Below, in pieces: positions 4,802 through 54,702 of a DNA stretch of 64,000 nt (position 1 is its first letter; every line of letters begins with the position of its first letter). Made by a program: the position numbers and the translations under genes. The stretch spans positions 35,259 to 99,258 of the forward strand of contig JAPKYJ010000024.1 of the NCBI GenBank assembly GCA_026394375.1. The letters run 5' to 3'. The stretch is from Methanomassiliicoccales archaeon (GTDB taxonomy: Archaea > Thermoplasmatota > Thermoplasmata > Methanomassiliicoccales > UBA472). Below the pieces are notes generated by a model. That model saw nothing but the letters and a program-made list of their open reading frames with translations. It was not told where the DNA came from and searched no databases.

Positions 4802-5611
4802 CTAGCGCAGCATCAACGGATCGCCCAACCCTCCACCCACGTCCTTGTCATCCATCTCACCGATGGAGGCGTGGATGAGCTCTGCTTCGGGGGTGGCGAG
4901 CGGCGATAGTCCGCACATATCCTCCTCGTCGATCTTCTGCACCATCTCCTCGATCTCCGGGGTGATCTGACTGATGAACGACTCACCAATCTGCAGGCAA
5001 AGCGAGTCAATGATCTTGATGATGGAACGCTCCATCACCGCAAAGGCCTCCGAGATCGGACTGTCTCCCGCGAACTGCAGCAGACGATCGTTGTCAAGCA
5101 CCACCGTGGTCTCGGTGACCTCACGCAGCCTGCGAATGCCCTCGCTCGCCTTCTTCAACCTCTCGGTCTCGTATGAGAACGGGTTGATGGCGATCGCGAA
5201 CGTCACCGCATCAAGCTCCTTGGACACCTCGGCGATGATTGGCGCTGCCCCGGTCCCGGTGCCGCCGCCCATCCCTGCCACTATGATGACGATGTCACTG
5301 CCATCCAGGACCTGCTTGAAGGCGTCCCTCGCCCTCTCGGCGCAGTACTCCCCCACCTCGGGGAAGCCGCAAGCGCCCAAGCCTTGAGTGATGTCCTTTC
5401 CTATCAATACCTTCTTGCTCGCTTCGATACTATCCAGCTTCTTCTCGTCGGTATTGACAGCGACGGTCTCCACTCTGGTCCTGCAGTCCTCGTATATCCT
5501 TTGCACCACGTTGTTCCCGGCACCACCGCACCCAACTACCGTAATCTTGGGCTCGATCATGCCCTTGCTGAGCATCGTCACGATCTGCTCAGTTCTTGCG
5601 CTCTTGTCCAT
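4802..5611 (-). CDS. FtsZ/tubulin-family GTPase, N-terminal domain only (short FtsZ paralogue)
   Basis: 269 aa. Contains VVGCGGAGNNVV and the tubulin signature GMGGGTGTGAAP. Homology stops after helix H7. No T7 loop or C-terminal subdomain is present, and the tail is acidic. The gene ends at a TAG. Confidence 0.8.
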   Translation of the reverse strand: MDKSARTEQIVTMLSKGMIEPKITVVGCGGAGNNVVQRIYEDCRTRVETVAVNTDEKKLDSIEASKKVLIGKDITQGLGACGFPEVGEYCAERARDAFKQVLDGSDIVIIVAGMGGGTGTGAAPIIAEVSKELDAVTFAIAINPFSYETERLKKASEGIRRLREVTETTVVLDNDRLLQFAGDSPISEAFAVMERSIIKIIDSLCLQIGESFISQITPEIEEMVQKIDEEDMCGLSPLATPEAELIHASIGEMDDKDVGGGLGDPLMLR

Positions 5612-5731
5612 GTCCCCAGGCCTCCCGGTCTATCTTTCAGGAACAGGTGACCTAACGGTTCGTTGAAACCGTGCACCCCATCCCTTCTGCCCAGCAACCT
5701 GCCAGACAGCCCAACTTTCGTCCTTGCCGCT

Positions 5732-6100
5732 CTAGGGGAGCATCTTGACCGCGTCCCGCGCCTCGAGCACCCTCTTCTTCATCTCTTCCAGGTACTCCGG
5801 CTTGAGGAACTCCTTCCGGACCGTCTCCTCGATCGCCCCACCGACGGAGTTGTAGACGCCTTCTCGCACCATCGCTTGGACGACGAAGAGCGCAGCCCTT
5901 GGCAGCTCCACCGTCACACGGTTGCCCATCTCCTCTGACACCGATGATACTTGTGCCCCTTCAATGAACGCGCGGATCGCCATTCGGGCGAGCTGCGATC
6001 TCGAAGCGAATTCCGGACGCTTCTCTATGAAGCTGTCCAGAAGCTCGAGGTCTTCCGGCTCTAGCCGAAGGGTTATTCTCTCTCCGTCCATTGTTCTCAC
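5732..6100 (-). CDS. ribbon-helix-helix (CopG/CdrS-like) DNA-binding protein with two RHH-like repeats
   Basis: 122 aa. ERITLRLEPEDLELLDSFIEK..RSQLARMAIRAFIE fits a beta-alpha-alpha RHH. A second RHH-like unit is NRVTVELPRAALFVVQAMVREGVYNSVGGAIEETVRKEF. The gene lies immediately upstream of the ftsZ-like gene. Confidence 0.7.
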   Translation of the reverse strand: MRTMDGERITLRLEPEDLELLDSFIEKRPEFASRSQLARMAIRAFIEGAQVSSVSEEMGNRVTVELPRAALFVVQAMVREGVYNSVGGAIEETVRKEFLKPEYLEEMKKRVLEARDAVKMLP

Positions 6101-16060: not shown

Positions 16061-16975
16061 TCAGTCCATGTCGTGGAACCTGGCCCCGCAGTTGGGACAG
16101 GAGTCCGCTCTCTCGCTCACCAGTTCGTTACATTTGGGACAGATGACCACCTCGTTGGGGGCACTTTCGACCGTGCCGATGACCGGTTCGATCGGACCCC
16201 TCCCTATTTCCCGAGCTTCGTAAGCGAAGCCCGCCCCCAGGGTGATGGTGAAGGCACTGGCGATGGCCACTCCCCATCCCACAGACGTATCCAAGGCGGT
16301 GATGGAATAGAGCTCCAAGGCGACCAAATACACCACTACGCCCGCAGCCATGATCCCCACTGGCAGCCTCATGCTCTTGCCGAATCTGCTCGCCTTGGCC
16401 ACAGGTAGCTCCGAGCGAAGCTCCCCGATCGGACTGACCGGGGCCTCGACCACCTGCTTCTCGGCCATCAGTGAGGGGGCGGGTGGCTCAGAGACCGGCT
16501 GGCCGATCATGGTGTCTACGAAGGCCTTGACCTCGCGCATCTCCGCCGAAGGCATGTCCACCGGGGTCATGTGGTCCGCCGTCCATTTCTTACCCGCTGA
16601 CTGAAGCTCTTCCTCGCTCACTGGCGAGTCGGTATTCGCCAATCCTCGAGGCTCGGTGCGCTGGGCCGCCACCACTTCCCGACTGGCGTGAACGATGGTA
16701 GACTCGATCTTCTTGGAGAGCTCGTCGCCCAGGACTATGGAATCGGTCTCTCGGTTGAGCGTCTCCAGTACTTTCACATGGGAGGACCATTCATCGGAGG
16801 CGCCCTGGAACTCCCAGCCGCAGAAATCGCACTGGGCAACCGAGGGTTTGTTCCTCAGTCCGCATCGAGGGCACTCCTTGAATCCCGGTTTTCTCTCCAT
16901 CCAATCTATCAAGAACCCCCGTACATGATAATAATCTTTTTCGCCCGGATGGTCCGGATTGAGGATGGCTTCCAT
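16061..16975 (-). CDS. membrane protein with N- and C-terminal zinc ribbons
   Basis: 304 aa. CPRCGLRN..CDFCGWEF at the N-terminus, hydrophobic segments in the centre, and CPKCNELV..CPNCGARF at the C-terminus. Confidence 0.6.
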   Translation of the reverse strand: MEAILNPDHPGEKDYYHVRGFLIDWMERKPGFKECPRCGLRNKPSVAQCDFCGWEFQGASDEWSSHVKVLETLNRETDSIVLGDELSKKIESTIVHASREVVAAQRTEPRGLANTDSPVSEEELQSAGKKWTADHMTPVDMPSAEMREVKAFVDTMIGQPVSEPPAPSLMAEKQVVEAPVSPIGELRSELPVAKASRFGKSMRLPVGIMAAGVVVYLVALELYSITALDTSVGWGVAIASAFTITLGAGFAYEAREIGRGPIEPVIGTVESAPNEVVICPKCNELVSERADSCPNCGARFHDMD

Positions 16976-28958: not shown

Positions 28959-29219
28959 TTAGGAGCGCTCCAGTTCTATTCGCTCTAAATTGCATTCCGG
29001 GCATATCTCGTAGTCCAAGGCAGCGAAGTTGGAGAAGACCTCAAACACCTGGCCGCAGCATGAGCATTTCTTGAACGCGAGAAAGGGAGCGACATGCTCA
29101 GAGCACTCGATGACGCGGCAGCGTCGGAGGTCGACGCAGGACACGACTTGGCAATTGTCGCATAAGCTCCTTCGCTTGATGTTCACAACGACGTGCTTGC
29201 CTACCTGAACTCTCGTCAA
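28959..29219 (-). CDS. Cys-rich small protein (10 Cys) downstream of nrdD
   Basis: 86 aa from a TTG start. Contains CDNCQVVSC...C..IEC...CSCCG...CPEC. An ATAAATATT box sits directly upstream, so the true start may be the internal GTG near 29186. Confidence 0.45.
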   Translation of the reverse strand: MTRVQVGKHVVVNIKRRSLCDNCQVVSCVDLRRCRVIECSEHVAPFLAFKKCSCCGQVFEVFSNFAALDYEICPECNLERIELERS

Positions 29220-34651: not shown

Positions 34652-35284
34652 ATGTCGGACCTGGATACCCTGATCTATGCGGTGGCGCTGCTGTTCTTCA
34701 TCTTCGATCCGTTCGCCAGCCTGCCGATCTTCATCAGCATGACCAAGAACTTCGACGACAAAGAGAAGGAGATGTCCGCCAACCGGGCGATCTTCGTGGC
34801 GGCCGTGCTCTTCGTCATCTTCACTCTCATCGGCACGAACCTCCTGGGCATCTTCGGGGTGAGCACGGACAGCTTCCGCGTGGCCGGGGGCATAATTCTC
34901 ATCCTCATGGCGGTGGAGATCATATTCGGGTTCAACCTCACCAAGCAGAGCGACGTCAACGTCGCCTGGGTGATCATAGCCACGCCCATCTTGACCGGCC
35001 CGGGCGTCATAACCACCGCCATCCTCCTCACCTCGACCATCGGCATATTTCCAACGCTGATCGCTGGCGTCATCTCCCTAGCTGTGACATGGGGCCTGCT
35101 GCGCAACGCCATCTACATCGTCCGTCGGGTCGGCAACAACGTCATCGAGATCTTCTCCAAGATCATCGGACTGCTCATCGCCGCCATGGCGGTGGAGTTC
35201 ATCCTCCGGGGGGTGGCGGACTGGTTCGCCAAGTACGATCCCCAACTGATAGGGGCGGCCCTCCATCTACTCGCTCCTTGGTGA
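34652..35284 (+). CDS. MarC-family (UPF0056) integral membrane protein
   Basis: ATG 34652 gives MSDLDTLIYAVALLFFIFDPFASLPIF..., with six hydrophobic segments. Confidence 0.8.
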   Translation: MSDLDTLIYAVALLFFIFDPFASLPIFISMTKNFDDKEKEMSANRAIFVAAVLFVIFTLIGTNLLGIFGVSTDSFRVAGGIILILMAVEIIFGFNLTKQSDVNVAWVIIATPILTGPGVITTAILLTSTIGIFPTLIAGVISLAVTWGLLRNAIYIVRRVGNNVIEIFSKIIGLLIAAMAVEFILRGVADWFAKYDPQLIGAALHLLAPW

Positions 35285-35682: not shown

Positions 35683-35946
35683 ATGCCAGAAGCGGAAAGG
35701 ACGCAGAGCGGCTCGTGCGGTTCGGCCTCGGTCGACGAATCGAAGAAGATCTGGATCTCAGGAGCGAACGTAGGCATCAGCGGCTGGAGCAAGATGGTGG
35801 AGGAGATCAAGGCCCTGAAGCTCAAGGACGACGAGAAGATCGCGGACGAGCTGCTGAAGCGGGTCAAGAAGAACGATTTCGTGCCGTCCAGCAAGGAGAA
35901 GGAGTTCCGTAAGGTTCTGCTCGAGGAGTACAAGAAATCGGCCTGA
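35683..35946 (+). CDS. hypothetical small protein
   Basis: 87 aa with a Lys/Glu-rich C-terminus. No family recognised. Confidence 0.4.
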   Translation: MPEAERTQSGSCGSASVDESKKIWISGANVGISGWSKMVEEIKALKLKDDEKIADELLKRVKKNDFVPSSKEKEFRKVLLEEYKKSA

Positions 35947-35949
35947 GCA

Positions 35950-36612
35950 TCAGTAGATGTAGGGAATGAGGCGGTAACGTACTCTGTTCATGTAAGCCCG
36001 GTACTCACACTCCTGGCCGAGCTTCTTCTCTTCAATGCCGATCCGGATCGCTAGTAGGATCATCGCCACGGCGAAAAGTGCCAAGGCCAACAAGTTGAAA
36101 CGCAGCATCATCAGTCCGAAGAGGAAGAGGGCCTCTCCCAAATAGACCGGATGCCTCACCATCGAGTAGGGACCAGAGGTGACGATGTTACGCACCGATG
36201 GCAGAATGGCAAAAGACCTCCGGAGATAGAGCAGCCCTGCCACGCTCAAAATGGCACCAGGTATTGCGATCAGCCCGAGTATTGGTTCGGCGTACTGGGG
36301 AGGTGTAAGGATGGAAGCGTTGAGGACCGCGGTGGGAAAGATGAAGGATGCGGAAGGCACGACCATCTCGCGTACATATGTCGGACCCTTTGGCGGTGAG
36401 CGAACGAGGAAGGAGAACGCCGCGGCGAGGTTGATCGGGATCGAAGCGAGAGCCTGCAGGCGAATGAAGTTCTCGCTTGCTAGATAGGCAGAATACACCG
36501 AGGCGCCGCACAGAACAAGGAAGAGCAGGGCCAAGGCCCGATCAATGTCCTTGTCTCCCAGGTACATCGAGGCTGGCATCCGTGCTTCCTCCGGTTCGCT
36601 AGAACGATACAT
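35950..36612 (-). CDS. isoprenylcysteine carboxyl / phospholipid methyltransferase-family membrane protein
   Basis: 220 aa, multi-TM. Contains the conserved block GPYSMVRHPVYLGEALFLFG. Confidence 0.75.
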   Translation of the reverse strand: MYRSSEPEEARMPASMYLGDKDIDRALALLFLVLCGASVYSAYLASENFIRLQALASIPINLAAAFSFLVRSPPKGPTYVREMVVPSASFIFPTAVLNASILTPPQYAEPILGLIAIPGAILSVAGLLYLRRSFAILPSVRNIVTSGPYSMVRHPVYLGEALFLFGLMMLRFNLLALALFAVAMILLAIRIGIEEKKLGQECEYRAYMNRVRYRLIPYIY

Positions 36613-36635
36613 AGGTAAAATGGTTCCTCACTGCA

Positions 36636-37331
36636 TCAATCGTTCACGAGCCCGCTCGTGATCAGGTGACCGAGCCAAAGAAGTGCGATGATCACGAATT
36701 CCGTGATGGTGGCCGCCAACAGCAGTCGGCGACGCTGTCTGCCTGGAGCTAGGGTAAACCCCCTGGTCGCCCCCCAGGCCAGCATTGCCAGCAGTAGGAA
36801 GAAGCCCAGAAATCCGATTGAGATAACGGTGGCAAGAACGTACCATCCGATGACGCCGGGGTCAGTCCATACCAAGAGGGCCCAGAGGAAGGCCGCGGGA
36901 AAGTAGAAGAAGGAGAGGTCCAGCCAGGTGAAGACGCGTTCCTTCGGATCGCCCTTGGTCAGCAATACGGAAGCGGCTGTGCAGAGCAATAAGCCTGCCG
37001 AGATGCCGAACAATAGCCCGGTGGCCAGGCGCATAGGGTTGTTGGTGCTCAACAGCCCAAGGTATGAAGAGGCGGCGTCGAACAAGTAGAGCGCCATCCC
37101 GAAGATCGCCGCTATCATAGTGGGGCGGTCGAAGATCTTCGCCTTTCTGTACCTTTTAGTGAGGATGTAAAATAGGACCACTGTCAGGAAGCCCAAATAG
37201 ATGCCAGTGTCGCGCGCGCACATCGGCATCTGGTATCCACCCAGAACGAAGGAGCGCTCTGGCAGTTGATGACAGATGGCGAACCCTAGGTTCCAAAGTA
37301 TGGAAGAGAACGGATCGGACGGGATAGCCAT
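36636..37331 (-). CDS. DUF2085-family membrane protein
   Basis: 231 aa. Contains CHQLPERSF...MPMCARDTGIYLG, followed by TM helices. Confidence 0.7.
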   Translation of the reverse strand: MAIPSDPFSSILWNLGFAICHQLPERSFVLGGYQMPMCARDTGIYLGFLTVVLFYILTKRYRKAKIFDRPTMIAAIFGMALYLFDAASSYLGLLSTNNPMRLATGLLFGISAGLLLCTAASVLLTKGDPKERVFTWLDLSFFYFPAAFLWALLVWTDPGVIGWYVLATVISIGFLGFFLLLAMLAWGATRGFTLAPGRQRRRLLLAATITEFVIIALLWLGHLITSGLVND

Positions 37332-37370
37332 CGACTGTGGAAAGGAAAAGAAGGATAAAAAGGGAAGTGT

Positions 37371-37736
37371 TTAGTACCAGAACATCGAAGAGGCGAAGAC
37401 CACGAATAATACGACCCAGCAAAGCACGTACAACACGATACCGGCGATGCTCAAGAGCAGGCAGTTCTTGCCCACATGACGCTTCTCCGGGTTGGGGTCG
37501 TTGTTCCAGACCAGGAACATGATGAACCCGATCACGACGCTGAAGAGCGATACCAGGTAGAGTATGTACTTCAGCGCTCCGAGAGACTCCTGTGGGACTG
37601 GTTGTCCATATCCTGGTGCGGGCTGGCCCATTGGCACGCCCTGCGGCCTTCCGCAGTGCGGGCAGACGTTGTACTCGAGCGGGATCTGCCGACCGCATCC
37701 GGTACACATCCTTGTTCCTTGTGGACTTGTTGCCAC
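37371..37736 (-). CDS. zinc-ribbon protein with two C-terminal TM helices
   Basis: 121 aa. CTGCGRQIPLEYNVCPHCGRP, then a Pro/Gly-rich linker, then two hydrophobic helices. Confidence 0.6.
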   Translation of the reverse strand: MATSPQGTRMCTGCGRQIPLEYNVCPHCGRPQGVPMGQPAPGYGQPVPQESLGALKYILYLVSLFSVVIGFIMFLVWNNDPNPEKRHVGKNCLLLSIAGIVLYVLCWVVLFVVFASSMFWY

Positions 37737-37905
37737 TTTAGTTTCCCTCCTTGATCATACATCTGGCCCAATAGACCAGACCTATTTGGCCACATTATGG
37801 CCTTTTTCTATATTAAAGGTTGCCAGCGTTTGGAAAGCGAGTGCTCGTTGTGAATACAAAAGAGCGAAACGGCCAGGTCCTTACTCTAGCCTGGTCATCG
37901 GAGAA

Positions 37906-39378
37906 CTACCTCCTGTCCTTAGGGGCACCGCACTCCGGGCAGAACTTGGAGTTCGCCGGAACCTCGGCAGAGCAGGAGGGACAGAAGCGCATTCCTTCCT
38001 TAGGCACAGGTGCAGGCGGCGCTGCGACCGGTACCGGTGCTGGCGGAGCGGGCTCAAGCGCCGGAGGCGCGGGAGCGGGAATATCCATCGGTGGACCGAC
38101 CGGGCCCGGTCGGCCGCAGTAAGGGCAGTATCTCAGCCCTTCTGGCACATCCCTGCCACAGCTAGGGCAAAGCCTGGTCTTCTGCAGTGCTGGAGCTGAA
38201 GGCGCGGGAGCTCCTCCGCCGACGTTCGGCTTGCCGCAGAACGGGCAGAAATTGAGGTTCATCGGGAATTCGCGGCCGCAGCCCATGCACCTGATGTTCT
38301 GCTTCGCCTGATCAGGTGGAGGTGCTGTCGGTGGAGGTCCAGCAGGAGCCGGCTTGCCGCAGAAAGGGCAGAAGGCAAGGCCTTCCGGTGCATCCCTGCC
38401 GCATCCAGGGCAGAGCCGAGTAGTTGGTGCCGCTGGCGCTTGAGCAGGTGTCGTTGGCGCGGCCTGAATCGGTTGCGGTCCGGTGTCCGGCATCCCGCAA
38501 TAGGGGCAGAAGTTGAGCCCTTTGGGCGCATCGCGTCCACAGCCCATGCACTTGCGCATCTCCCTCGTCGCCGGGGGTGGAATGGGGACGAGTGGCTGTG
38601 ATGGAGGAACGGGCGCAGGCTGAGGCATTGCGCTTTGATCGTATGGCGCGGGCTTTCCGCATGACGGACAGAAGTTCAATCTCTCTGGGACCTCTTTCGC
38701 GCAACCAGCGCAGCGCACCATCTTCTTGGGCGGTTCGGGCGCGGGCAGTGGGGGCGGGGGCAACTGATCGTAAGGGGCGGGCTTGCCGCAACCGGGGCAG
38801 AAGCTCAGGCCAGCGGGGACTTCGCGACCACAACCGACGCATTTGACCATCGGCTTTGGTGGCGGCGAAGGTGCTGGCGTCGGCGGCGCAGCACTTGCCG
38901 AATAGGGTGCTTGCTTGCCGCATGAAGGGCAGAAGTTGAGACCGTCTGGAACGTCCTTGGCACAGGAGATGCAACGCGTCATTGGTTTGGGCGCTTGGAC
39001 GGGTTCTGGGGCAGGGACCAGCGGAGCTCCCGCCGGTCCAGGCCTTCCACAGTAGGGGCAATAGCTCAATCCCTCGGGCACCTGTCGTCCGCAGCCAGGG
39101 CAGAGGCGGGTTTGTTTCTGTGCTCCCGTCTGCGCTCCAACGGCCACGGGCGGGCCGGATGGACCCTCGCGACCGCAGTAAGGGCAGAACTTGAGTCCCT
39201 CCTGGACCTCGCGCCCGCAGCCGGGACATAGTCTTTTGGCAGGAGCACCCGGTGCTTGAGCCCCAGCATAGTCGCTCGGCGCTTCGGAGCCTCTGGGCCT
39301 GCCGCAGTACGGGCAGTAAGACAGCGCTCCCGAGATCTCCCTTCCACAACCTGGACAAAGCCTCATACCTTCCTTCAT
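37906..39378 (-). CDS. protein of 11 tandem zinc-ribbon units joined by Pro/Ala-rich linkers
   Basis: 490 aa. I count eleven units of the form (R/K)xCxxC(G/A)(R/K)(D/E)xPxGLxFCPxCGxP, each followed by a 15-35 aa Pro/Ala-rich linker. GGGAGG lies 8 nt upstream of the ATG. No TM segment or signal peptide. Confidence 0.75.
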   Translation of the reverse strand: MKEGMRLCPGCGREISGALSYCPYCGRPRGSEAPSDYAGAQAPGAPAKRLCPGCGREVQEGLKFCPYCGREGPSGPPVAVGAQTGAQKQTRLCPGCGRQVPEGLSYCPYCGRPGPAGAPLVPAPEPVQAPKPMTRCISCAKDVPDGLNFCPSCGKQAPYSASAAPPTPAPSPPPKPMVKCVGCGREVPAGLSFCPGCGKPAPYDQLPPPPLPAPEPPKKMVRCAGCAKEVPERLNFCPSCGKPAPYDQSAMPQPAPVPPSQPLVPIPPPATREMRKCMGCGRDAPKGLNFCPYCGMPDTGPQPIQAAPTTPAQAPAAPTTRLCPGCGRDAPEGLAFCPFCGKPAPAGPPPTAPPPDQAKQNIRCMGCGREFPMNLNFCPFCGKPNVGGGAPAPSAPALQKTRLCPSCGRDVPEGLRYCPYCGRPGPVGPPMDIPAPAPPALEPAPPAPVPVAAPPAPVPKEGMRFCPSCSAEVPANSKFCPECGAPKDRR

Positions 39379-39545
39379 GAAATGAACCTCCCAAGACGGT
39401 GCGCAGAATGCGCCGCTCTGGATATTCCGCAGTAGAGGTTAATAAGATTGTGGCTTCCAGATTGCTAAATGAGAGCACCATCTCTTCTTGGATGGAGAAG
39501 AGGTTTTGCGCCGGCCGTCACCGACGCCTGCGAAAGTTGCTGAAT

Positions 39546-39827
39546 TCACTTCTGGTCGTTGATCTTGATCAGGTGCCAGCCGAACTGCGTCTTTACCGGA
39601 CCGACGATCTTGCCCTTCTCCCCCTCGAAAGCGGCCTTATCGAACTCCGCCACCATCTGGCCCTTCCCGAACCAGCCGAGCTCCCCTCCCTTCTTACCGG
39701 AGGGGCATTTGGACCATTTCTTCGCCAGGTTCGGGAAGCTCTGCCCGGAGCTGAGCTTGGCCATCAGGTCCTTGGCTTCTTTCTCGCTGCTGACCAGGAT
39801 GTGCGAACAGTTCACCTGCTTTGGCAT
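39546..39827 (-). CDS. parvulin-type peptidyl-prolyl cis-trans isomerase
   Basis: 93 aa. Contains CSHILV...GGELGWFGKGQMVAEFDKAAF...KTQFGWHLIK. Confidence 0.9.
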   Translation of the reverse strand: MPKQVNCSHILVSSEKEAKDLMAKLSSGQSFPNLAKKWSKCPSGKKGGELGWFGKGQMVAEFDKAAFEGEKGKIVGPVKTQFGWHLIKINDQK

Positions 39828-39947
39828 GCGCGAGCGAATTGCTTGGAGGGCGATATAATTTACCGTTGCGAAGTCGCAGGCTCGCTCGCATTTGAACGAT
39901 GGGGAGCGCCAGAAACTTAAAAGCGGGCAGCCGCGATACTGCGATGC

Positions 39948-41210
39948 ATGTGGCGGCCGCTTGACCTGGAAGCCTGGAGCTCTAAACGTCGAGAGAATCT
40001 GGACAGCGTCAAGCCTTCCGTCTCAGAGATTATCGATTACGTTAGGAACGAAGGCGACAAAGCGCTTTTCGACCTGGCCGAGCGCTTCGATAAGGTGAAG
40101 CTGAAAGCCCTGAGAGTGGACGAAGAGCAGTTGAAGGCCGCCCGCGAAAGCATCGAGCCAGCACTTGTCAGCACCCTGCAGGAGGCAAGAAAGCGGATCG
40201 AGCGCTTCCACCGCATGCAGCTGAAGGACCAGACCTGGCTGAAGGAAGTGGAGCCGGGCGTATCCCTCGGAGTAAGGGTAACGCCTTTGGAACGGATCGG
40301 TGCCTACATACCTGGTGGCAGAGCATCGTATCCAAGCACCGCCCTGATGTGCGTGATCCCCGCCAAAGTGGCAGGAGTGAAGGAGATCGTCTGTTGCACG
40401 CCTCCCCCCGCCAACCCATTGACGTTGGCCGCCCTGGAGATCGTAGGGGCGGACGAGGTGTACCTGGTCGGGGGGGCGCAGGCGGTAGCGGCCATGGCCC
40501 TCGGAACGAAGACGATCAGGCGGGTGCAGAAGATCGTCGGTCCAGGCAACGTCTACGTCACCGCGGCCAAGATGATGCTGCGCGATCGCGTTGAGATAGA
40601 TTTTCCTGCCGGTCCGAGCGAGATCGTCATCGTTGCGGATTCGAGCGCGAACCCGGAGTTCATAGCCGCCGATATCCTGGCCCAGGCGGAGCACGATCCG
40701 AGGTCCCCCTGTGCCCTGGTGACCACCGATCCCGATCTGCCGAGGAAGGTGGGAGATGCTCTGAGACGGCAGCTGAAGGGATCGAAGCGCCAGGAGATAC
40801 TCCTCAAATCAATGGACAACGCCGGCTATCTGGTGATTAAAGGCATCCATGAGGCCGGGGAAGTGGTCAACCGCATCGCGCCCGAGCACTTGTCCGTTCA
40901 ATGCTCCAACCCTCTGCGTTTCCTGGATGAAGTGCAGAACGCCGGCTCCATCTTCCTCGGACACTATGCGGCGGTGGCTTGTGGCGATTACGCCTCGGGC
41001 ACGAACCACGTACTGCCCACCGCCGGCTTCGCCTCGCTCTACTCCGGACTGGACGTCTGGCACTTCTGCAAGCGCACGTCGGTGCAGATGATCGAGCGCG
41101 AAGGTCTGGAGGAGATCGGTGATGTGGTGGAGCGGCTTGCCAAAGCGGAAGGGCTGGAAGCTCATGCAAGATCGGTGAGTCTGCGGAGAAAGAGCAAGCA
41201 GGGCAGCTGA
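39948..41210 (+). CDS. hisD: histidinol dehydrogenase
   Basis: 420 aa. Contains YIPGGRASYPSTALM and the AQAEHDP and GDYASGTNHVLPT blocks. Confidence 0.9.
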   Translation: MWRPLDLEAWSSKRRENLDSVKPSVSEIIDYVRNEGDKALFDLAERFDKVKLKALRVDEEQLKAARESIEPALVSTLQEARKRIERFHRMQLKDQTWLKEVEPGVSLGVRVTPLERIGAYIPGGRASYPSTALMCVIPAKVAGVKEIVCCTPPPANPLTLAALEIVGADEVYLVGGAQAVAAMALGTKTIRRVQKIVGPGNVYVTAAKMMLRDRVEIDFPAGPSEIVIVADSSANPEFIAADILAQAEHDPRSPCALVTTDPDLPRKVGDALRRQLKGSKRQEILLKSMDNAGYLVIKGIHEAGEVVNRIAPEHLSVQCSNPLRFLDEVQNAGSIFLGHYAAVACGDYASGTNHVLPTAGFASLYSGLDVWHFCKRTSVQMIEREGLEEIGDVVERLAKAEGLEAHARSVSLRRKSKQGS

Positions 41211-50439: not shown

Positions 50440-50928
50440 TCAGGACCAGAATTCCTTTCGCATGGTCAGCTGAATTAGATTGAAGAGAGCGAGCTTGACC
50501 CGAACCTCATTTCTTCGACCGTTTTCCGACCGACATCGAAGAGGATATCCGAGCAGCGCTCCAATCATGCTGAAGACCGTCTCGGCATGTGCGCGCTTCG
50601 CGTACAGCGAAGCGAAACGGTTCGGCCAGTGATGCGCGAAGTTGACCAGCTTTTGATAGAAGTTCTTCGGCCGTTCAAAGTCACGAGCGTTCTTCCTGAT
50701 GCCATGGAGCGGCGTAGCTCCATGCTGGCGAGCTGCCAGCAGGCAGTCCTCCCCGTGATAAGCGGAGTCGGCCAGACTCCGCTTCACTTGCACGTTCGAG
50801 GGCAGACCGCTCCACACCTGCCTGAACATCTGGCTGTCGTGCACGTTCGAGCGCGTGAGCTCGAACGATAGAACGATGAACTCATCGACCTCGACACGGA
50901 CGACTGGGTCGTCTACGTGATCTCCCTG
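50440..50928 (-). pseudogene. IS4/IS5-superfamily DDE transposase, 5'-truncated remnant
   Basis: Only the C-terminal catalytic part is present: ...FELTRSNVHDSQMF...LADSAYHGED...YAKRAHAETVFSMI. The frame is open upstream only to 50928, with no start codon and no N-terminal domain. Confidence 0.7.
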
Positions 50929-53100: not shown

Positions 53101-54702
53101 ATGGTTGATGATTATAGAGGGAGGACACCAGTCGAACTGCTAAACTTCTTCCGTTCGCCTGGCGGGCACTCCCTTCTCATCAAGGGAGACGCCGGCACGG
53201 GAAAGACCACCTTGGCGCTCCAGCTCATAGAGGAGCTAGCAGAGGAGATGCCGGACTACTACATGTCCATGCGAGTCTCGGATGAAGCGCTATACCGTCA
53301 ATTCCCCTGGCTGGAGGAGAAGTCCCGGCGCAACAACGTGCTGCGTATGGGACGGGCGTTCCTCACCCGGACCAAGAAGACGTTCCCTAGGGACGCTCAG
53401 ACGATACAAGACGAGGGCAAGCTACGGGTGGCCAAGGATCTGCTCAAAGTGCTATCCGGACCAGAGGGCAGCAAGACGGTCACACGCACGGAGCTGCTCA
53501 AGCTAGAGGGCCAGATCGAGAGCGGGGAGATAGGCAGAGAGGAAGTAGCCACATTCTCCGCCGAGGTGAGCGAGGAATCCATCGTTTTCGACGTGGGAGC
53601 GATCCTGCCGGAGCTGGAGCTTGCCTACGACCTGGTCGAGGCTAACCTGCCCAAGAGGACGTTCCTAGTAGTGGATAGCATCGACGCGCTGGCTGAGCAT
53701 TATGGCATCGAACGGCAGCGCATAATGAATACCTTGCAGAAGGACCTGGTCGAGCAATCGGGCACGAACATCGCCTACGTCATGGAGACGTCGGAGAAGA
53801 GCCTCTTCGACTATCTGGGCGATGGCTTGGTGCGACTTTACAATGAACAGAGGGGCGGCAGGCGCATCCGGGAGCTGGTACTGGAGAAGCTGCGCGGCCT
53901 ACGGGTGGACCGTTGGAAGTATCCTTTCACACTGCTTGATGGAAGATTGAGGGTGCTAGAGAGCTTGCAGCTGCGGATCCCGGAGGACCTGGAGAAGCAT
54001 CTCCCGGTCAAGGATCCGAACGAGGAGAGCATCTCCACCGGCAACATCAGCATGGATGGCGTCCTTGGAGGCTTGCCTCGAGGCGGAGTGGTCCTGCTGG
54101 AAGTGGGCGAGGACGTCTCGCAGGAGTTCTTGAAGGCCATGGAGCACGTTCTCATCGCCGATCAACTGAGCAAGCGGCGGGGAGTGGTCTGGTTCCCGCT
54201 TTTTGCCATCAACTACGCCGTCCTGGAGAAACAGATGCGGAAGTTGGCCGGGAAGGAGGCACTCTCCAGTGGGCTACGAATCTTGGACGCGGAGGCTGAC
54301 CTGGAGAGCCGCTACGATTTCGTTTCCATGGTGGAGGGGAGCGATGCCACCCAGGACCTCCGCTTCAACACCGTGCGATACGCGCTTTCCTCAGCGCAAG
54401 AGCCCTATCTATCCTTGCTCGGATTCGACTCCCTGCAGGCGACATACGGGATGGATGCGCTGACGGATGTCCTGGTGCACGTGGAGGCGATGAAGCGCAA
54501 CGGTCATGTGGTCGTGATCGAAGCAACATCCTCCTCAGGAGCGCTCAAGCAGCTGGCGCACCAGGCGCAGCTTCACATCCGGTTGGAGAGCCTGGCCGGG
54601 ACGGTGGTTCTGTGCGGGATCAAGCCTTATACGCAGTACTACTACCTGGACTTCGAGCGGAGCACGGGCAAGATCGCACCGGACCTCGTAGCCATGGTAT
54701 GA
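53101..54702 (+). CDS. GvpD/KaiC-like RecA-superfamily ATPase with degenerate second domain
   Basis: 533 aa. Domain 1 has LLNFFRSPGGHSLLIKGDAGTGKTTLALQLIEEL (Walker A) and FLVVDSIDAL (Walker B). Domain 2 begins ISTGNISMDGVLGGLPRGGVVLLEVGEDVSQEF, so the P-loop position is not a Walker A. Confidence 0.65.
   Translation: MVDDYRGRTPVELLNFFRSPGGHSLLIKGDAGTGKTTLALQLIEELAEEMPDYYMSMRVSDEALYRQFPWLEEKSRRNNVLRMGRAFLTRTKKTFPRDAQTIQDEGKLRVAKDLLKVLSGPEGSKTVTRTELLKLEGQIESGEIGREEVATFSAEVSEESIVFDVGAILPELELAYDLVEANLPKRTFLVVDSIDALAEHYGIERQRIMNTLQKDLVEQSGTNIAYVMETSEKSLFDYLGDGLVRLYNEQRGGRRIRELVLEKLRGLRVDRWKYPFTLLDGRLRVLESLQLRIPEDLEKHLPVKDPNEESISTGNISMDGVLGGLPRGGVVLLEVGEDVSQEFLKAMEHVLIADQLSKRRGVVWFPLFAINYAVLEKQMRKLAGKEALSSGLRILDAEADLESRYDFVSMVEGSDATQDLRFNTVRYALSSAQEPYLSLLGFDSLQATYGMDALTDVLVHVEAMKRNGHVVVIEATSSSGALKQLAHQAQLHIRLESLAGTVVLCGIKPYTQYYYLDFERSTGKIAPDLVAMV

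Follow-up and report, generated by a model that had tools for sequence, protein, structure and literature searches.

What does an archaeal cell do with a protein made of nothing but zinc ribbons strung on proline-rich linkers, and is the reading frame that encodes it a gene at all or a decaying repeat? The question is raised by a locus on contig JAPKYJ010000024.1 (assembly GCA_026394375.1) of a Methanomassiliicoccales archaeon, in a stretch of 64,000 nucleotides (positions 35,259 to 99,258, forward strand) that is hereafter called the window. A preliminary description of this DNA had reported a 490-aa protein of eleven consecutive ribbon units (hereafter the array), with no other domain, transmembrane (TM) segment or signal peptide, and beside it a 121-aa protein with one ribbon and two hydrophobic helices as a possible membrane anchor or partner. 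We find that the array gene is under selection as a protein-coding gene, that its units have individual identities and a fixed order, and that it sits in a conserved block of membrane-protein genes, which tentatively points to a role as an adaptor near the membrane. The gene and its ribosome-binding site (coordinates of the window throughout) are:

37906..39378, minus strand: multi-zinc-ribbon coding sequence, 490 aa, 11 Cys4 modules with disordered P/A-rich linkers (from the open reading frame (ORF), Pfam, AlphaFold2 and dN/dS)
39387..39392, minus strand: Shine-Dalgarno (SD) sequence GGGAGG, 8 nt 5' of the array-gene ATG (from the sequence; conserved in the relative L006)

A regular-expression count gives exactly 11 C-x2-C-x10-C-x2-C units, with a first-to-last Cys span of 18 residues in 11/11 of them and an inter-core spacing of 22-44 residues. 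The last linker is longer than the 15-35 residues given in the preliminary description, with 44 residues between cores. In a six-frame scan of the window the motif occurs in 8 ORFs, each of which except the array has at most two copies. The array protein is 22% P, 12% A, 11% G and 9% C (44 Cys) and has no His at all; it shows no TM segment (best 19-residue Kyte-Doolittle value 0.70) and no signal peptide, its N-terminus, MKEGMRLCPGCG, being a C4 ribbon. AlphaFold2 (AF2), with 17 sequences, models it as 11 two-stranded beta-hairpin beads (predicted local distance difference test score, pLDDT, 85-93) joined by 10 linker segments, all with pLDDT <50; because of these linkers and a predicted template-modeling score of 0.23, it is modeled as having no fixed overall shape. 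Each module has four Cys in a zinc-ribbon arrangement, with two CxxC knuckles on a beta-hairpin, and the product is predicted to be a cytoplasmic beads-on-a-string protein of 11 independently folding ~28-residue modules on flexible ~20-40-residue linkers. The unit count, the ribbon type of the units and the lack of any other domain, TM segment or signal peptide had therefore been read correctly, as judged by the motif count, Pfam, AF2 and hydropathy.

The profile search that the preliminary description had proposed matched DZR and related families at E-values from 7.1e-37 to 4.5e-51, namely DZR (PF12773; 171.2 bits, E 4.5e-51, gathering cut-off 27.3), DUF7575 (PF24460; 155.2 bits, E 2.4e-46, cut-off 28.5), Zn_ribbon_15 (PF17032; 141.6 bits, E 1.4e-41, cut-off 28.9) and Zn_Ribbon_1 (PF13240; 124.6 bits, E 7.1e-37, cut-off 25), with 11 separate Pfam stretches at a relaxed threshold. 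By score and fold the array protein belongs to the DZR/Zn_Ribbon_1/DUF7575 domain families, and its units are predicted to bind zinc. A clear match to a characterized family of known function had been named beforehand as something that would refute the first description; the family match is indeed clear, but the families are without assigned function. They share with the array the C(P)xCG...C(P)xCG knuckles and the 10-residue hairpin; whereas they are domain-defined, functionally uncharacterized and typically comprise 1-3 ribbons that in many cases precede a TM segment, the array consists of 11 ribbons alone. To our knowledge, DZR/C(P)XCG zinc ribbons are among the commonest uncharacterized archaeal modules, with ligands that are almost wholly unestablished. 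An exact look-up of the 490-aa sequence found no record in the public collection, NCBIfam has no family for it, and a PDB sequence search returned nothing below E 0.07, its matches being generic ribbons only (Nop10, L37Ae, L32, rubrerythrin, MIOS). The label Nob1, which JGI gives to orthologs, is rejected: a PIN domain is missing, the Zn_ribbon_NOB1 score of 16.4 bits falls short of the cut-off (24.9), and the similarity is that of generic ribbons.

Whether the frame is a gene can be judged from its nearest relative, the JGI contig L006, in which the region is fully syntenic, the array ortholog is 91% identical and the other proteins are 93-99% identical. Nonsynonymous (dN) and synonymous (dS) divergence between the window and L006, by the Nei-Gojobori method, are as follows:

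ribbons of the array: dN 0.012, dS 0.22, dN/dS 0.056
linkers of the array: dN 0.077, dS 0.24, dN/dS 0.32
parvulin gene: dN 0.018, dS 0.304, dN/dS 0.06
121-aa gene: dN 0.027, dS 0.199, dN/dS 0.135
hisD: dN 0.026, dS 0.167, dN/dS 0.15

The ribbons are therefore constrained like the neighboring enzymes, and the linkers are relaxed without being neutral. The array gene is genuine and is maintained by selection. A non-functional, decaying low-complexity repeat might be argued for from a copy number that varies between 6 and 11, the absence of the gene in some lineages, a possible remnant in one of them (L009) and frameshifted copies in some assemblies, and the preliminary description had itself taken variability or frameshifts in relatives as the mark of a junk repeat. 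Copy number does turn out to be variable, but the ribbon dN/dS of 0.056 at dS ~0.22 excludes junk; moreover, every indel is in frame and removes whole units, at least 13 species-level genomes have intact orthologs, and a good SD sequence and the start codon are conserved. The frameshifted orthologs (L007, 4751-5870, and P0017/P0018, the latter at L052, 3001-4044) appear to lose the frame within Pro-rich linkers, while a second frame still encodes intact ribbons. We reject them as instances of decay and regard them as probable assembly errors: they come from error-prone long-read assemblies in which the neighboring GCS2 and Lactamase_B genes are also fragmented. Decay is thus effectively refuted and retains next to no probability. 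A 389-aa Arg/Leu/Ser-rich ORF in another frame (38312-39481, minus strand) is likewise rejected as a gene, being a by-product of the G+C-rich repeat, with selection acting in the 490-aa frame.

The codon usage of the array gene also sets it apart. Its Pro, Ala and Gly codons are used far more evenly than those of 22 other genes of the window (for Ala, GCC 16% vs 46% and GCA+GCT 48% vs 18%), its G+C content at third codon positions is 0.63 vs 0.75-0.84, and its longest run of C or G is at most 5. A possible reason is that slippage-prone or recombinogenic repeats are avoided, or that the tRNA load is spread.

A homology search with the array returned 32 relatives, the best of them 39-46% identical (278-368 aa), and its orthologs are found only in a subclade of Methanomassiliicoccales. 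Across these orthologs the units fall into the classes N-cap (..CGREIS..), A (RLCPGCGRxxPEGLxFCPYCGRPGP), B (CxxCGKxVPDGLNFCPMCGKxAPY), C (MRKCxGCGRDxPxGLNFCPYCGRPD), D (KIRCMxCGREFPxNLNFCPYCGRxN) and C-cap (..KFCPECGxP..). In the window they are arranged thus:

39304..39357, minus strand: ribbon 1, N-terminal cap type, CPGCGREIS..CPYCGRPRG; closest to unit 1 of the 9-unit ortholog L018 (66%)
39175..39228, minus strand: ribbon 2, A type, RLCPGCGRxxxEGLxFCPYCGR (from the sequence)
39049..39102, minus strand: ribbon 3, A type (from the sequence)
38920..38973, minus strand: ribbon 4, B type, CxxCxKxVPDGLNFCPxCGKxAPY; maps to the sole B unit of other orthologs
38788..38841, minus strand: ribbon 5, B type, an extra copy also present in L006 (from the sequence)
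38659..38712, minus strand: ribbon 6, B type, absent with its linker from L006; the repeated peptide GKPAPYDQ lies on either side of the indel
38497..38550, minus strand: ribbon 7, C type, MRKCxGCGRDxPxGLNFCPYCGxPD (from the sequence)
38359..38412, minus strand: ribbon 8, A type (from the sequence)
38236..38289, minus strand: ribbon 9, D type, IRCMGCGREFPxNLNFCPFCGKPN (from the sequence)
38116..38169, minus strand: ribbon 10, A type (from the sequence)
37930..37983, minus strand: ribbon 11, C-terminal cap type, CPSCSAEVPANSKFCPECGAPKDRR; with the Cys left aside, it shares 75% identity with the final unit of L012/P0006

The distinctive units B, C, D and C-cap each find their top match at the corresponding position of every ortholog, in collinear order, while A and the N-cap are less discriminating; ribbon 1, for instance, is outscored in L022 by unit 2 over unit 1 (66% vs 58%). 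The 9-unit arrays of L018 and L022 read cap-A-A-B-C-A-D-A-cap, and that of the window cap-A-A-B-B-B-C-A-D-A-cap. The units are individualized and not interchangeable, and the fixed order of their types is common to distant orthologs (~45% identity). A comparison of repeat number among relatives, which the preliminary description had suggested, yields 6, 7, 8, 9, 10 or 11 units, the maximum being that of the window, around a ground plan of nine. Whole units come and go: the L006 array has 10 units with two of type B, and lacks exactly unit 6 of the window and its linker (43 aa), with the breakpoints in the GKPAPYDQ that ends units 5 and 6. Because unit 6 has just 61-65% DNA identity to units 4 and 5, it is not a fresh duplicate, and a deletion in the L006 line appears to be the simpler reading of the difference. 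DNA identity among all the units is 37-68%, and Tandem Repeats Finder detected no DNA array within the gene. The earlier claim of an old, maintained array thus stands as to age, given this divergence and the collinearity at ~45% identity, but needs qualification as to maintenance, given the 6-11 copies, the unit missing from L006 and the absence of the gene from several lineages. The linkers are P/A-rich in the window vs S/T/Q/N-rich in P0002 and P0003, with a spacing of ~20-50 residues throughout, a pattern that fits spacers whose length is kept while their sequence drifts fairly freely.

What the array might do has to be sought in its company. On the same strand it lies between a parvulin gene (39546-39827) and the 121-aa gene, which is followed by genes for a DUF2085 protein and an ICMT/PEMT-like methyltransferase. 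The features downstream of the array are:

37809..37817, minus strand: TATA-box-like element TTTAATATA 5' of the 121-aa gene, in the 169-nt gap, ~70 nt before its SD sequence
37757..37785, minus strand: predicted leader hairpin of the 121-aa gene, minimum free energy (MFE) -15.2 kcal/mol
37371..37736, minus strand: 121-aa protein, GTG start; Cys4 ribbon at aa 11-28, disordered P/Q/G/Y tether at aa 35-48, helical hairpin formed by aa 53-78 and aa 83-119
36636..37331, minus strand: DUF2085 polytopic membrane protein (Pfam E 6.7e-25), starting 39 nt after the 121-aa gene
35950..36612, minus strand: ICMT/PEMT-like membrane methyltransferase (Pfam ICMT E 2.2e-9, PEMT E 2.9e-8), starting 23 nt after the DUF2085 gene

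The AF2 model, with hydrophobic helices at 53-78 and 83-119, and the sequence agree with the earlier description of the 121-aa protein as one ribbon joined by a Pro/Gly linker to two hydrophobic helices. It is far better conserved than the array (45-96% identity over 39 clusters), its ribbon RMCTGCGRQIPxEYNVCPHCGRP and its conserved motif DPNPEKRHVGKNC being near-invariant in the family. A Foldseek search of its model against the PDB gave no match at E <=0.001; the nearest fold neighbors of its ribbon, Nup358/Nup153 zinc finger-Ran and NZF-ubiquitin complexes, are non-significant (E >=1), and NCBIfam returned for the hairpin only pilin-like matches below threshold. When 1.8 billion representatives were searched with a profile, 135 clusters matched at E <1e-10 and 4329 at E <1e-3, many of the top matches spanning the entire ribbon-tether-hairpin, with hairpin-only proteins also present. 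Among them are proteins with two, three or four ribbons on a hairpin of the 121-aa type (P0079, P0098 and P0115, of which P0098 has two and P0115 four), and further fusions with two ribbons and a PKD domain (P0089) or with an M48 peptidase and three ribbons (P0111). P0115 (L050/L051, 5001-5636; 211 aa), which comes from the same metagenome as L006 (JGI 3300032118), adjoins EamA and archaeal shikimate-pathway genes and has no DUF2085 gene nearby.

The SD sequence of the 121-aa gene, AAGGAGGG, is preceded at a matching distance by a TTTAAGTAT-type element in nearly all relatives examined, those without the array included; because of this recurrence the 121-aa gene, together with the DUF2085 and methyltransferase genes, looks like a transcription unit of its own. 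The DUF2085 gene is probably co-transcribed with the 121-aa gene. Between the TATA-like element and the SD sequence, at matching positions in L001-L027, every lineage has a stable, sequence-divergent leader hairpin (MFE -11 to -16 kcal/mol; mean z = -2.4 vs shuffles in 14 lineages). RNAalifold on a MAFFT alignment of the leaders gave a consensus structure with no pairs, and Rfam had no credible match over 35800-40000. The literature offers three incidental mentions of DUF2085, with no function given, and the NCBIfam match of the ICMT-like protein falls far under the cut-off.

A scan with a profile of the 121-aa family, in one genome per species, found 18 full-length loci, all in metagenome-assembled genomes of Methanomassiliicoccales/Methanomassiliicoccaceae. 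The array lies directly 5' of the 121-aa gene in the window and in L001/L012, L002, L003-5, L006, L008/L025, L010, L011, L015, L016, L018, L020, L021, L022 and L026, and in L014 and L017 it occupies the same place but is truncated by the end of the contig; downstream of the 121-aa gene comes DUF2085 almost always and the methyltransferase usually. The block occurs in two contexts. In the first (window, L001, L002, L006, L010, L011, L018, L022) hisD and parvulin lie upstream and p87-Cdd1-MarC downstream; in the second (L003-5, L015, L016, L020) Lactamase_B and a two-ribbon hairpin paralog lie upstream and aconitase downstream. This pairing in every lineage with the array and in both contexts, along with the existence of hairpins bearing 2-4 ribbons, makes the 121-aa protein the credible partner that it had been suggested to be. 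The parvulin, by contrast, is rejected as a partner of a 22%-proline protein: it is background synteny, staying in place where the array is absent and missing in the second context. The paralog of the second context is a 152-aa protein (L003/L004, 7465-7923; also in L015, L016 and L020) encoded directly upstream of the array in a clade with six units; it carries two ribbons on the PExRHVGKxC hairpin that the 121-aa protein also has, and the soluble array is thus flanked there by two membrane-tethered ribbon proteins.

We incline, tentatively, to the reading that the array is a multivalent, membrane-proximal adaptor. It would act at the cytoplasmic face of the membrane with the 121-aa protein, the DUF2085 protein and usually the ICMT-like methyltransferase. 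The 121-aa protein would be held in the membrane by its two-helix hairpin, with one very conserved ribbon dangling on a short tether rich in P and Q, and each ribbon of the array would be a small protein-binding knob, so that many weak contacts in series might provide reach as well as avidity. Docking would fall to the differentiated end units, and the variable middle would determine length and valency. The 11-bead architecture of the AF2 model, the strong constraint on the ribbons, the individualized collinear units and the preserved linker spacing all support this reading, as do the conserved pairing with the 121-aa gene across two contexts, the fusions of several ribbons to hairpins of its type and, in one clade, the second membrane-anchored ribbon paralog on the far side of the array. 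It also leans on two precedents, the FtsZ1 tether CdpC and the zinc-finger arrays by which Nup358 and Nup153 collect Ran.

Several observations weigh against an adaptor. The link between the array and the membrane proteins is one of synteny alone. A structural role could account for every conserved non-Cys residue of the units (G, R/K, P, F/Y, L), leaving no evident binding surface, and some C(P)XCG motifs of Haloferax contain no metal or a different one (PMC11241148). The array is, moreover, an accessory and not an obligate partner of the 121-aa gene, since that gene has its own conserved promoter-like element, is part of a far broader family, so that it cannot be there solely for the array, and persists without it: in L009, L019 and L023 the array is missing and parvulin abuts the 121-aa gene, and no array was seen in L013, L024 and L027, from which it is probably absent. 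In a neighbor-joining tree of the 121-aa protein, whose resolution is low given the short sequence, most lineages without the array branch deep, but L019 is sister to the array-bearing L017, and at least one loss of the array therefore follows. At the L009 locus, which is also without the DUF2085 and ICMT-like genes, two frames of the 314-nt spacer between parvulin and the 121-aa gene (5687-6000) give fragments resembling split ribbons (..PACGNTASQGLS.., ..EFRPFCGTMPSYG..), which may be the remnant of a decayed array.

The 44 Cys allow a different reading, in which the protein is a thiol or metal switch. Its 11 metal-thiolate centers would sense or buffer oxidants or metal, oxidation in this strict anaerobe leading to metal release, unfolding and a holdase activity like that of Hsp33 or Ruc, or else the array would be a reservoir of metal (zinc). 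The precedent is Ruc (Rv0991c), with a zinc ribbon and a disordered tail, which gains chaperone activity on oxidation (PMC7448276). The very high Cys density and the disorder of the array protein would suit such a role. Ruc resembles the array in its Cys4 ribbon and extensive disorder, but it is bacterial and linked to chaperone genes, with one ribbon and one disordered tail against 11 ribbons here; and Zn_ribbon_8 (FmdB, CxxC_CxxC_SSSS), which we take to be the ribbon family of Ruc, has no match in the array protein, which is not a member of the Ruc family. Redox genes in the wider neighborhood (FeThRed_B/rubredoxin-like, thioredoxin-like by the L006 annotation, and CMD) and the foldase parvulin directly upstream could also be cited in its favor. 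However, these are part of the local synteny background: they are not beside the array in the context typified by L003, and lineages without the array have parvulin abutting the 121-aa gene. Individualized unit types that stay in order over a long divergence are not something that a generic thiol or metal sponge would require, and the Cys-Cys or Cys-X-Cys clusters of metallothioneins are absent. We consider a switch or reservoir possible but unlikely.

The charge of the protein bears on yet another reading, that each ribbon contacts RNA or DNA in the manner of ZRANB2 fingers or of ribosomal or TFIIB/TFS ribbons, the array coating or bridging nucleic acid. The apo-sequence is basic, with a pI of 8.8 (10.0 if the Cys are taken as non-ionizing), and each ribbon carries 0 to +3 (K/R minus D/E). 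With Zn(Cys)4 counted as -2, however, the holo-protein stands at about -3 (R28, K23, D12, E20), and the basic residues may just neutralize the metal sites. Its neighbors in sequence and fold include Nop10, L37Ae/eL43, L32 and ZRANB2 bound to single-stranded RNA (ssRNA), but these are weak and non-significant (E >=0.07 by sequence, >=1 by fold). The aromatic, base-stacking residues of RNA-binding RanBP2 fingers, in particular the conserved W, are absent, and the genomic association is with membrane proteins and not with nucleic-acid enzymes. Nucleic-acid binding by the array is in our estimate distinctly unlikely.

The same fingers provide one of the precedents for the adaptor reading. The zf-RanBP signature comprises a conserved W-x-C and N; the array has no Trp before the first Cys, and Pfam gave no zf-RanBP match to it up to E 10. 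The C-x2-C-x10-C-x2-C spacing is nonetheless shared with the RanBP2/NZF arrays (8 fingers in Nup358 and 4 in Nup153; PDB 7MNT, 7MO5), which likewise consist of two-hairpin mini-folds in tandem on disordered linkers and serve as multivalent platforms. As these arrays are eukaryotic and have known ligands (Ran-GDP, ubiquitin, ssRNA), the likeness is an analogy of design and not membership.

The other precedent is archaeal. CdpC (HVO_0399, DUF7093) of Haloferax volcanii is a membrane anchor of FtsZ1, which its C-terminal ribbon binds, and consists of a ribbon, a 243-aa disordered linker and a second ribbon, and multi-zinc-ribbon proteins of unassigned function in all classes of Thermoplasmatota have been presented as its remote relatives (bioRxiv 10.64898/2026.07.16.738847). 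Both CdpC and the array are archaeal and combine conserved ribbons and key residues with fast-evolving disordered linkers, and CdpC acts at the membrane. But CdpC has two ribbons, one C3H with an N-terminal amphipathic helix and one C4, on a single 243-aa linker, whereas the array has 11 C4 ribbons and 10 short linkers; the remote homologs of CdpC are said to lack an evident linker (bioRxiv 10.64898/2026.07.16.738847), and the array has ten. The DUF7093 model matched neither the 490-aa nor the 121-aa protein up to E 10, and neither an amphipathic N-terminal helix nor a C3H site of the CdpC type is present in the array (no helix in the AF2 model and zero His). The array is therefore not a member of CdpC/DUF7093, and the resemblance is one of design only; the remote homology proposed in the preprint comes from profiles broadened around generic ribbons and does not discriminate. 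More speculatively still, and in our view improbable, the four genes for the array, the tethered-ribbon hairpin, the DUF2085 protein and the ICMT-like protein might form an undescribed membrane module of Methanomassiliicoccales. The array would then serve a cytoskeletal or envelope machine as a clustering factor or a tether of tunable length, for example as a divisome tether of the FtsZ/SepF type like CdpC, with unit number setting reach or valency.

The locus amounts to a natural experiment, with recognizable units, whole-unit changes of copy number between close relatives and an adjoining membrane-tethered ribbon. If the array is a multivalent tether, a role at which the CdpC preprint hints for Thermoplasmatota proteins with several ribbons, it offers a testable candidate for membrane or divisome organization in a methanogen order that has no genetic model; if not, it is one more protein annotated as "zinc ribbon domain-containing protein".

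The haloarchaeal C(P)XCG micro-proteins, also archaeal, have the same knuckles (CPGCG, CPYCG), but they are single domains of 40-70 aa as opposed to a 490-aa concatenation, and in H. volcanii C(P)XCG proteins of >100 aa are rare (0.6%) (PMC11241148). PADLOC gave zero matches for the array, the 121-aa protein, the DUF2085 protein, the ICMT-like protein and parvulin. Other long arrays exist in uncharacterized, unrelated metagenomic proteins: P0081 (801 aa) has 12 matched stretches, or ~14 ribbons by manual count, behind a predicted helical N-terminal region, P0197 (411 aa) has 7-8 ribbons, and P0138 (423 aa) at least 11 with a C-terminal TM segment. By eye, the N-terminal region of two of these three is helical or resembles a coiled coil, and after it come 7 to ~14 ribbons whose linkers are acidic and rich in P and E. 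Since long arrays and multi-ribbon hairpins occur elsewhere, neither the array nor the 121-aa hairpin is unique in kind. The domains have been catalogued before, and there are arrays comparable to this one; the novelty lies in the 9-unit ground plan with its whole-unit gains and losses, and in the conserved four-gene block. For a further ribbon protein, P0024, in which the ribbon is joined to an SPFH domain, a PDB search found no solved relative.

The remainder of the window is ordinary archaeal chromosome, with genes for aminoacyl-tRNA synthetases, SRP54, eIF6, S19e, NrdD and an Opp transporter. Two further ORFs touch on ribbons. A 304-aa protein (16061-16975, minus strand) has two CxxC..CxxC motifs; Zn_ribbon_3, Zn_Ribbon_1 and DZR match the C-terminal motif, and the remainder of the protein has no Pfam domain. 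An 86-aa ORF (28959-29219, minus strand) has a weak match to Zn_ribbon_8 (E 2.5e-4, 21 bits; cut-off 34). The FtsZ-family gene nearest to the array, some 33 kb away, is a 269-aa ORF (4802-5611, minus strand) whose product has a Tubulin/FtsZ GTPase domain (E 2e-41) but less than the usual length of an FtsZ; it is of interest here solely for the binding of FtsZ1 by ribbon proteins of the CdpC type. Just upstream of it is a 122-aa ORF (5732-6100) with no Pfam match. A 134-aa fragment of a DDE transposase lies at 50440-50844 (minus strand), and a 533-aa GvpD/KaiC-like P-loop ATPase is encoded at 53101-54702 (plus strand).

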